A stretch of DNA of 64,000 nucleotides, from assembly GCA_010909165.1 (NCBI GenBank), contig VJWM01000172.1:372001-436000 (forward strand). Reading direction: 5' to 3'. Every line of letters begins with the position of its first letter. The first letter of the stretch is position 1. The notes under the pieces were generated by a model. It did no database searches. It worked only from the letters and a program-made list of their open reading frames with translations, and was not told the DNA's origin. Source of the stretch: Anthoceros angustus (Eukaryota > Plantae > Anthocerotophyta). A program made the position numbers and the translations under genes. Positions 13,421 through 17,650 of the stretch are shown here, one piece after another.

Positions 13421-16061
13421 CGCAGAGGCCGGAGTGGTGGTTGTTCCTTGAGGGGCGGAGGTCATGGAGTACCTGGAATCCCCATCGGGTGTGAAGTGGT
13501 TCTCGACATAACCGTGCAGCAGAAGCGCAAAACCAAAACCCCTTCCATGCTGGAGTTGTTCGCCTACGATCCGTGTTCATGGGCCGGAATTGGAAAGAGG
13601 TTGTGGCAAAACGTTTGTACTTGCTTCCCCGCTATTTGGGACATTATGTGGAAGGCGAGAGTAGTGGAGCTATCTCGCTCTTTTTATGATATTGTCCACC
13701 GAACAAGCCGCCTGTTTTGGGATCGCCGATTTGAAGCCCCACAAGGCGCCACCGACGGGGCCAAGTTAAAGGATATATTCGCAGAGTGGATATAGCGATG
13801 ACATGGTAGGGGAGATTTTTCAAATCCATGACAGCCTCGCTTGGAAGGAGTTCGCTGACCGACCGCTTGTTCTGTTGTGGTGGTGGGAGGTACGTTTTGT
13901 AATGTACATTACAATGTTGATATGTAATGTACACTTGAACTTTAATCTGTAAGGGCCATGATGACTTTCATCCGTAATATACCTTACACGTTGTTCATTC
14001 TCAATCCCCGCAGATACTCGCCACCTTCGTGCGTACTAGCCTCATCGGGTTTGAGGATTTCGATGACAGGAAGGTGCTCCTCTTGAACGGTTGCAGACCC
14101 ACCAAATTCTCTTGTCATTTCGTCTTAGACGGAGTAATTTTTAAGGATCACGTGGTGTCCTTGAGATCTTGGGCTTGGGAGCTGGATAGGTTCGCATGGC
14201 GTCGGTGTTTCCAGGACTTCAGCTCCACGACGGATGAGGCAGCGAAAGGAATGCTCGTTCGTACGATGTGTTTGGACAATTTGTTGTGTCGGCGTAATGG
14301 AGGCTTAGAGTTGAAGGGACGAGGTCTGAGCCCATTGGACGACACTGTATACACGGAGAAGCGGCTTCTGAAGCTTGCAGGCTGTTCAGGTGCGAAGTTG
14401 GACCGTCGAACCATGCATGCACCATTGAGGTGGGTCTCGTATGGATGTCATGGACTGCAGACATTCAAGCAAAGCATGGCATCACGGTTTCGTGCGATGT
14501 CTCCGCTTTTCGGACCGTGTGTCCCAAACCAGTGGCAGAAGTGCAGCCAGAGAGGTGGGATGCCGCCCTTGCCGAATGCAAGAATTATTGGTTAAAGGCA
14601 TGTCCGTTGGCAACAAAAGATGTACCGTATATGCCGCGTTGGGTACGATCGACATGGCTCTACCGCCGCCGCGTCGATGATGATGTATGTCAATGTGCCT
14701 GCAGCATATCCGACACCGACGTTATGGGCACAGATGCTGAAAGTAAGACATGTGACAGAACTGTAAGGCATATTATAGTGTTGGTTTGTAATGTACCTAA
14801 CTGGTTGTGAGAACTATTGTCACCGCAGGTGCAGGCAGAGTATCCCGCTACGGATTCTATGCGGCTTGAAGCTCGATATGTTGAGACCATATCAGAGAGG
14901 CAGCGGGGAGCAGTTGCTATGGCATCGGGCCGTGGGGCAGCGAACGATATGGCTCGCTTTCGGAGAATTTCTGCAGGATTATCGCCCAAAGACATCCCAC
15001 GCCAACACGAGCCAACCCTCCGCCCGCTGTAGGTTGGAGGGTGGAACATATACATCCGCCCAAGTTAGTGTGGGTCGAGGACATGCCCCATCAACAACGG
15101 GCTATGCGACGAGAATGGAACACATGTTTTCCATTGGGGTCCTTCATGTGGCGACCTCGATGTCAAGGCAATCCTATCGAACTCCATGCGGACATGTGTA
15201 CCACGACCCTGCAACACAGACGGTGGGTGTTTGGTGCTTTGGGTGCGAAATCATGGCGTGGGGAGATGTTGAGACGGTTCCCGTGGACTGGACGGTGGTG
15301 AAAACTCCGAGCTCGGAAAGGACTGGGAAGGCTTTGAAGCTGAATTGGGAAAGACACAACGATATCGATTTCGAGGGAATCGATCAGAAGTTCATCGTCC
15401 TTGACGCAGGTGACTCCAACAAGTTGGTACGTTCCGTACAGTAAGCTATATCACATTCAACTGATGTCCAGTTAACAAACATTGATGTACCGTGTTGCAG
15501 CCCCGAGCTACGGGAAGACGGAAGCGGCGCTTCAATGGGTGAAGTACACGTACTTCAGAAACCCCGCGACGAGGGTGATTCTCATCACGCACCGTGTTCT
15601 TTTGGCGAACTACACCTACGCTTGAATAAATTGTTGCATCCCATGATCCCGAGAGGGGTCCCGCCTGCTTATCAAGACCGCTAGGTGACGGGAGATGGTA
15701 TATGTACGGTTTGCCTCAATTCGCTGGGGAAGAATGTGTCGGAGGAGTTCATCCGTAATGTGATTACGCCATTGTGGATGAGGCGGTCAGGCGGAAGCAT
15801 TCGTGGGTGCCACGATGGACTCTTGTGGCCTAGCAAATAGGGTGGAGGACATCACGAGGCTCGCCGTAATCGCAAAGAAGGTTGTCATCATGGAATGGGA
15901 CATGGATCGACGAACAGTGGGTTGGTTCACATCGCGTGATGGTGTAGACCCATGGGATGTGATAAGGTGGCGCGCATCGCTGGAACATAGGCCCGCGCAA
16001 CCCATGTTGATCACACACAGCTATTATGTGTTATTTTCCAGGTATGTGACAGCTATTACTA

Positions 16062-16212
16062 AATGAGCGTGCGTACGGAGTGAGTGTGCTTCCAGAGTGA
16101 GTGTGCTTGCAGCATGAGTGTGCTTACAGAGTGAGTTGCTTACACAGTGAGTGTCCTTACATCTGTACAGAGTGAGTGTCCTTGCCTCTGTACAGAGTGA
16201 GTGTCCTTACAT
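16062..16212 (+). repeat. Intronic tandem repeat GAGTGAGTGT(G/C)CTT
   Basis: About seven imperfect copies inside the 16042-16239 intron. Confidence 0.85.
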
Positions 16213-17650
16213 CTGTTTCCTCTTCTCTACCTTTCGCAGGCTCATCACATATGTTAACTGGGTTTACAGCCCCAACGGCAAGTGCATGTATCCACTGATC
16301 GTCTTCTGTAGCTCCGCCGAGAATTGTCACCAACTCATGGTTGGTGTGAAGAGCCACATGGAAGCGCATCCTACATGGTCTAGGGATGAAATCCGAGCAA
16401 CGCAGGGAAGGGTGAAGGGGATATGGTCTGATGTCGCAAAGGACAAGTGGCAAGTAGACCTGATGAAAGACTTCAACAGGGTCTGCGCCGATTGTGATAT
16501 TCTATTTGCGAGCCCCGTGATTCAATGCGGTATCTCGTAGACACCCACTTCAAAGCGGCGATGGATGTTTTCCACTTCTCCAACATTCGACGACATGGCG
16601 AGGTGCAACACATGTTGCGCCTGTGAAGTTAATGGATGACTCGCCCATGGGTAAGAAATTGTGTTGAGCCACATCACTCCATCTCGAGCATTTCGAAGCG
16701 CCTCACGCTTCCCGGACGCCATTTGTGCTATGGGGGTCAGATAACAGACGCGCACTCCATGAACGAGACCGCAAGTGCATCCCCATTATCAGCTTCAGGT
16801 AAACATTTCACCGACTTTCATCGATATATGTATATACGCTCACACTTATGTGGAAGGTGGCTTACATTTTGTAACTGTGGGGTGTGTTACGCTTTCTTCT
16901 TGTGGTGTGTCTTACGCTATGTACCTGTAAGGTGTCTTACGCCGCAGATGTGTATGCAGGAGTTGGCACTGTCGGATGCCAAATACAATGTGGAGGTGGC
17001 GCGCGACAACCATGTCGTTGCACACAAGGAGGCTTTGGTAGCAGTGTGTGCATCGACAGTAGAAATGAAGTGGTTTTGGATGCCGATCCGCATAACCAAG
17101 AACGTTGTGAGTCCAATGACATAACAGACGATAGGTGGGACCCTCCTAATTGAAGTGGGAGGGAGGATTGGCAAATTCTTTCTCAGAGGAGTGCCGAGAA
17201 AGGTATGTGTTGTTTTCCATTTTCGCTTGTTTTTGACTTCATGTATTGCCGATTACATATATCGACAGATGTCTTCTTTGTCAGCCGATTATAGAAACAA
17301 AATATCGGGGAACCCGCATTGATGCACACGGATCACCCATCCCGAGACCGGCTCCATATGGAGTCGCAAAATATGCGCAGTTGTGCCGAGGACTTGGAAA
17401 TCGAAAGGGCCAAGGAGTGTTCCGGCCTGCTTTTGGGCGAATGTCAATGATTCTCGTTATCGATCATAGCGACTCCACCTCGGGTTGAGGGGTTCACTGT
17501 TTGTAAAGCGGTGGATTTCCAACAGCCTGGCCTTGAGCGTCTTCATGGACTACGTCGCTGTCAGGATGTTTCCCAACAATGCATATTGTACCCAGGCATG
17601 GGTGAATAGGCAGGAGTTGATGGACAGCCCTTTACTGCTGAGGTATTTTG

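Follow-up and report, generated by a model that had tools for sequence, protein, structure and literature searches.

An intron-split gene for a primase, a Zn finger and a UL9-like helicase was found in the hornwort Anthoceros angustus, within the window (the whole analysed stretch of 64,000 nucleotides from contig VJWM01000172.1). The gene is carried by a nuclear unit of about 10 kb that is both dispersed and tandemly repeated. Three gene copies were found, two of them in units lying head to tail, and host transposons are nested in the copies. That such a unit is likely self-replicating and likely silenced by methylation is a reading to which we give an even chance.

Layout and identity of the primase-helicase gene

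The gene begins approximately 1 kb upstream of the interval described in the earlier note. The features of the window copy and its immediate surroundings were as follows.

12225-12786, + strand: 3' end of the upstream gene, ORF1, with a poly-GAG acidic tract (12228-12394), a probable basic tail and TAA (12784-12786); predicted stop and gene boundary
12894-13425, + strand: probable gene start, ATG at 12894 (sequence motifs, also in the C50 copies)
12905-12974, 13029-13138 and 13324-13425, + strand: candidate introns in the probable gene start (sequence motifs, common to the C50 copies)
13426-13889, + strand: exon with primase motif I (LFWD at 13712; motif reading)
13890-14013, + strand: candidate intron, 124 nt, GC 0.36, homology rank 29/80
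14014-14742, + strand: exon with AEP/PrimPol motifs II (KFSCH, 14104) and III (DTVY, 14341); Atlas AEP_C962R 0.94, tblastn of homologues E 3e-7 to 6e-6
14743-14828, + strand: candidate intron, 86 nt, CTAAC branch word, homology rank 62/131
14829-15409, + strand: exon with linker, Zn-finger-like CFGC (15235) and the first half of Walker A (tblastn with P0004, E 1e-7)
15410-15500, + strand: intron splitting Walker A, 91 nt, GTGACT..TTGCAG, phase 1, homology rank 1/65
15501-16041, + strand: exon with GKT, motif Ia, Walker B (DEA, 15777) and motif III; three frameshifts and a stop in the assembly (profile alignment)
16042-16239, + strand: intron, 198 nt, GTATGT..TCGCAG, phase 2, homology rank 1/117
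16240-16798, + strand: exon with helicase motifs IV, V and VI (phmmer E 6e-9 to 9e-4)
16799-16947, + strand: candidate intron, 149 nt, homology rank 14/30
17203-17268, + strand: candidate intron, 66 nt, GC 0.35, homology rank 5/27
17643-26317, + strand: tenth candidate intron, with a CACTA transposon nested inside
17657-26150, + strand: full-length-looking CACTA/En-Spm transposon with a CACTA start and a degenerate right end; Transposase_21 (Tnp2) 1e-29, DUF4218 2e-23
26187-28378, + strand: 3' portion of the unit, with the probable last exon and repeats of ~500 bp (matches on C50, C82, C24 and C11; no profile match)

The motifs follow the order AEP I-III, CxxC, helicase I, Ia, II, III, IV, V and VI. 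AEP motifs I-III and the Zn finger are present, as are the UL9-like SF2 motifs I-VI, and the gene is a PrimPol-type primase joined to a Zn finger and a UL9-like SF2 helicase, like the primase-helicases of giant viruses. In the Atlas the helicase piece resembled UL9 at 0.77 only, which was treated as a lead. Herpes_ori_bp was matched by four of the eight homologues scanned, and P0004 matched the solved HSV UL9 in the PDB (E 5e-7). For folding, homologue P0007 stood in for the window protein; its predicted model (mean pLDDT 69, pTM 0.45) matched giant-virus primase-helicases over the full length at 11-16% identity, and also UL9 and PrimPol domain by domain. The window exon pieces had no match in Pfam and no meaningful one in PHROG. 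A word-based protein search with the same pieces returned no relatives, and only phmmer over cluster representatives found any; none occurred in the viral contigs or the metagenome contigs searched. No origin-binding C-terminal domain was found, the 3' exons being without a profile match.

The query for the homologue search was window 15503-16537, with X at stops. Four proteins were obtained from a phmmer search of 1.84 billion (cluster representatives), and seven were added by further searches (P0002-P0012). Because the query began 3' of the first tested intron and held the second unspliced, these homologues are independent of the junctions. They are genuinely related to the window gene in sequence (25-35% across exon pieces), with motifs in colinear order, and are recorded as continuous proteins; the window gene is split by introns and, in the assembly, shows frameshifts and a stop that are likely errors. 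P0009 is located on a 3.45 Mb chromosome-scale contig of Cunninghamella blakesleeana.

The homologue profile was aligned to the raw DNA by splice-aware alignment, in which any GT-AG pair was allowed and no junctions were supplied. Exactly 15410-15500 (phase 1) and 16042-16239 (phase 2) were chosen in all four spliced settings, with scores of 124-224 bits; without splicing the score was 97, and the reverse complement and five shuffles scored 16-21. When nearby GT/AG pairs were enumerated and ranked by homology, the same two intervals came out on top of 65 and 117 pairs, respectively, and their removal joins the flanking exons in frame, as the earlier note had claimed. The UL9-like motif I that splicing was said to rebuild was likewise recovered: the Walker A D-to-GKT spacing is 6 residues after splicing, equal to that of 7/7 homologues, and 36.3 without it. 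Between helicase motifs III and IV, the spacing is 68 residues spliced and 134 unspliced, compared with 69-72 in 6/7 homologues (P0005 was left out, its pattern being mis-anchored). Under lax penalties the alignment also proposed other introns, which were rejected since they fell in poorly conserved regions and varied with the settings. Judged by this homology, the introns 15410-15500 and 16042-16239 are real at these coordinates. The description of the introns as spliceosomal in type was borne out; for these two, removal restores colinearity with intron-free homologues. Interval 16042-16239 contains 17- and 25-bp minisatellites whose length varies between copies.

Four further GT-AG candidates had been proposed without coordinates and were taken as 13890-14013, 14743-14828, 16799-16947 and 17203-17268. 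All four are GT-AG and AT-richer than the exons (GC 0.35-0.43 vs 0.525), so that GT..AG ends are present in 6/6 window introns and candidates tested. They lie in poorly conserved parts, and by homology they come out mid-list. A CTRAY branch word precedes two of the six acceptors (14828 and 15500), compared with 26/251 background AGs. With 13890-14013 removed, the spacing of primase motifs I and II falls to 89 from 131 (53-112 in homologues), and removing 16799-16947 shifts a spacing from 129 to 79 against 61-64 in homologues, on a weak anchor; spacing mildly favours two of the four. Four more candidates lie outside the interval of the earlier note, which gives approximately ten candidate introns in the gene. 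As to the conservation of intron positions among genomic copies, suggested as a check, splice dinucleotides were retained at 21 of 24 sites in the two other gene copies, which as near-identical copies are not independent, and blind alignment of copies A and B did not recover both exact junctions.

The repeated unit, its neighbours and its frame breaks

Searches were made in the 119 Mb, 289-contig assembly, where the window belongs to contig C74; its PPR genes, a CACTA element and remains of LTR retroelements are signs of a land-plant genome. On C50 the unit consists, in order, of an AT-rich hairpin, approximately seven 66-bp repeats (x6.8), ORF1, the primase-helicase gene, ~500-bp repeats, and the next unit; copies A and B lie there head to tail, followed by a rearranged partial third. 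Pieces of the unit occur on six contigs overall, among them C12, C24, C82 and C11 (95 bp only). The hairpin measures 11-12 bp in copy B and C24, and 9 bp in C12. The C12 piece begins at the hairpin and ends against a PPR gene, C82 holds tandem 3' pieces, and the C24 piece begins in the 3' repeats and crosses the junction into the 5' end and ORF1, as would be expected of a fragment of a circle or concatemer. Homology of the window to the unit extends over 12225-17654 and resumes at 26187-28378, and the window copy lacks the unit's 5' part. ORF1 contains introns, acidic repeats and a probable basic nuclear-localisation tail; its pieces from C12 had no meaningful Pfam match. On C50 (G000:C50:942850-943830; L008:2850-3830) it is built of repeated exon-intron modules, each an acidic tract, a short conserved peptide and an intron, which suggests intron gain by tandem duplication.

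The homology gap at 17654-26187 is explained by the CACTA element, which is absent from the C50 copies. This element was also considered as the carrier of the primase-helicase and rejected, as its termini and Tnp2 belong to a nested insertion missing from those copies. Its segment 22948-24836 contains additional long frames that are unannotated. An exon of copy A holds a 6.1 kb insertion (G000:C50:929105-935246; L005/L006). This insertion is bounded by terminal inverted repeats of 12 bp, has apparently duplicated 4 bp of its target and contains an internal duplication of ~900 bp; five of its frames had no Pfam match. A Copia-like LTR element (G000:C12:1614050-1621644) is inserted in the 66-bp repeat array of the C12 unit piece, with a 5-bp duplication. 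The host gene beside copy A (L004:7574-9124, - strand) is a single frame that opens with a signal-peptide-like stretch and matches nothing in Pfam. Elsewhere in the window, frames judged by eye mark Gypsy-like remains at 5100-12220 (RNase H-like, 6463-7128) and 56210-57412 (integrase-like), and a Copia-like integrase piece at 36797-37267. Nested repeat arrays occupy positions 28395-64000; their repeats measure 1.4-5 kb and are 74-96% alike, a 57-bp satellite and inverted pieces of 150 bp also occur there, and the arrays are indel-rich too.

Splicing alone gives no open frame in the window copy because the exons between the introns are broken by 5-6 frameshifts and one stop, located within 13981-16623. 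The earlier note held that the intron split explained why ORF scans miss the gene; the introns do contribute, and so do the frameshifts. The three gene copies are 83-87% alike, and each pair differs by 131-150 indels and 21-30 isolated substitutions, the latter amounting to ~5 per kb with error-like differences set aside. Differences are four times denser at CG/CHG. Among 4-mers, the fraction retained between copies was 0.21 with CHG, 0.45 with CG and 0.70 otherwise, and 246 comparisons of CAG/CTG sites gave 114 indels and 3 clean C>T changes (deaminations). CG is not depleted (o/e 0.90-1.02). Old neutral decay was rejected, since clean C>T changes account for 1-3% of the comparisons made at CG and CHG sites. 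Of six other repeat pairs, five had 21-27 indels per kb, C82 being the sole exception among seven repeat pairs, and the host ORF beside copy A stays open for 517 codons. Nanopore base calls can fail at methylated C, although a literature search for this effect gave no supporting paper.

From this pattern we infer that most frame breaks are long-read consensus errors at methylated cytosines. On this reading the gene copies are likely young, and the same pattern suggests their CG/CHG methylation, i.e., silencing. Long-read errors in methylated DNA can thereby mimic an old pseudogene and hide a young element from annotation. The earlier conclusions that the gene had long been expressed through the host spliceosome, and that it was not a fresh viral insertion, were not supported: the error pattern points to silencing, the copies look young, and GT-AG introns are no proof of long host use because viruses carry them too. 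Mirusvirus genomes are reported to carry 37,703 introns (PMC12768974), and in an intact latent giant virus, punuivirus, 61/506 genes are described as spliced (10.64898/2026.10.09.758095). The introns indicate passage through the nucleus, neither age nor host function.

Origin and spread of the unit

A silenced selfish replicon of giant-virus ancestry is the best reading of the unit, held with as much belief as doubt; in this reading the unit would replicate itself. Set against it are the three gene copies, few for an active element, and the tandem and partial pieces, which can result from passive duplication or misassembly; ORF1 could be an unrecognised transposase. The last point leads to a conventional DNA transposon, in which ORF1 or the unmatched 3' exons would encode the transposase and the primase-helicase would act as a helper, much as AcademH transposons carry a helicase. 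The arrangement of two intron-containing genes in one orientation, together with subterminal repeat arrays, does resemble CACTA-like layouts, and the probable nuclear-localisation tail of ORF1 would suit a transposase. However, no transposase, HUH or recombinase was matched by Pfam in the scanned unit pieces, which are short and error-rich, and neither a terminal inverted repeat nor a target duplication was seen at six unit ends, mostly truncated or abutting insertions; both are weak objections, and we consider a transposon improbable. Slightly better placed, though still unlikely, is the view that the unit is left over from an endogenous virus, either nuclear or giant, with introns original or gained later, and that it was duplicated passively, the gene no longer driving spread. 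The P0007 model finds its nearest folds among nucleocytovirus primase-helicases, the gene copies are few, with 2/3 interrupted by insertions, and introns are reported in mirusviruses, decaying endogenous viral elements and punuivirus (PMC12768974; 10.64898/2026.10.09.758095). A relic does not readily account for the recurrence of the same two-gene unit with ordered repeats. Moreover, a viral gene block is absent around the locus, the flanks being host genes, host transposons (retroelements included) and repeats, and relatives are absent from the viral contigs searched. Capsid and VLTF3 profiles (PF04451, PF04947) matched nothing in the assembly, a weak point as control profiles matched nowhere either; PF02399 also had no match there, so the hallmark searches are insensitive.

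The reading implied by the earlier note, in which a viral gene was domesticated and has long been expressed like any gene of the host, would account for approximately ten candidate introns with canonical sites and for recognisable catalytic motifs, but the gene is multicopy within a repeat, is interrupted by transposons, and shows the error pattern of the window's repeats rather than the clean frame of the neighbouring host ORF. It is probably not a tamed host gene, and domestication appears quite implausible. Contamination or an assembly artefact could be suspected in so error-rich a stretch; it is the least credible explanation, with hardly any weight, as pieces occur on six contigs and host transposons are nested in them, including the LTR insertion with its 5-bp duplication in the C12 repeat array. 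The earlier judgement that the gene is not contamination therefore stands: copies lie next to host genes that are intact, and host insertions of the CACTA, LTR and TIR kinds interrupt them.

For a silenced selfish replicon, the following cycle is proposed. The host spliceosome would remove the approximately ten introns, and the UL9-like helicase would bind and open the AT-rich hairpin and the array of 66-bp repeats, much as HSV UL9 acts at the herpesvirus origin (PMC13483431). The AEP would prime DNA synthesis at the opened hairpin and repeats, and host polymerases would extend it into circles or concatemers of the unit. Host repair would insert these, leaving tandem and permuted pieces with no target duplications, and methylation would then silence the inserted copies. 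More tentatively, and with clear doubt, the unit may represent selfish DNA of a new eukaryotic class. It would be a minimal replicon of the nucleus, lacking both transposase and capsid, in which a giant virus is reduced to an origin-binding primase-helicase, its own origin (hairpin and 66-bp repeats) and an acidic helper gene, with host-type splicing, circles or concatemers, re-integration, and relatives in Mucoromycota fungi. If self-replicating, it would exemplify how a giant virus can give rise to a mobile element in plasmid-like fashion, with no integrase.

Comparison with known systems

The protein type is already known from giant viruses, as are introns in viral genes. The open-access literature searched yielded no account of a gene of this type at the core of a small, repeated, intron-rich two-gene element in a plant. 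Mirusviruses (PMC12768974) and punuivirus (10.64898/2026.10.09.758095) are described as having canonical GT-AG introns in virus-type genes, as in the window gene; their genomes hold hundreds of genes and capsids, whereas the unit is ~10 kb with two genes. Herpesvirus UL9 (PDB 9hgi, 9hgj; PMC13483431) shares the helicase core and the Walker A spacing. UL9 itself has no fused primase and carries an origin-binding C-terminal SAP subdomain; in the window gene the primase lies upstream and no such domain was found. F1055L of ASFV is reported to join a primase to a UL9-like protein (PMC10653895).

The nucleocytovirus primase-helicases (Marseillevirus D2XAI8, Bodo saltans virus, Mimiviridae; ~1000-1200 aa) have the same AEP-Zn finger-UL9-like SF2 order. 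Identity to them is 11-16% (P0007), and the hornwort gene, unlike theirs, is intron-split and nuclear, with no viral hallmark genes detected. In layout, the unit is like Helitrons and Replitrons, the yeast 2-micron plasmid and EBV oriP, with tandem arrays apparently without TIRs and a palindrome beside a short-repeat array. Helitrons and Replitrons feature an HUH endonuclease, and Helitrons a PIF1-type SF1 helicase. In the short, error-rich unit pieces no HUH nuclease, PIF1 helicase or recombinase was detected, and a primase-helicase is present instead, its helicase being of the UL9-like SF2 type and not the PIF1-type SF1 helicase of Helitrons.
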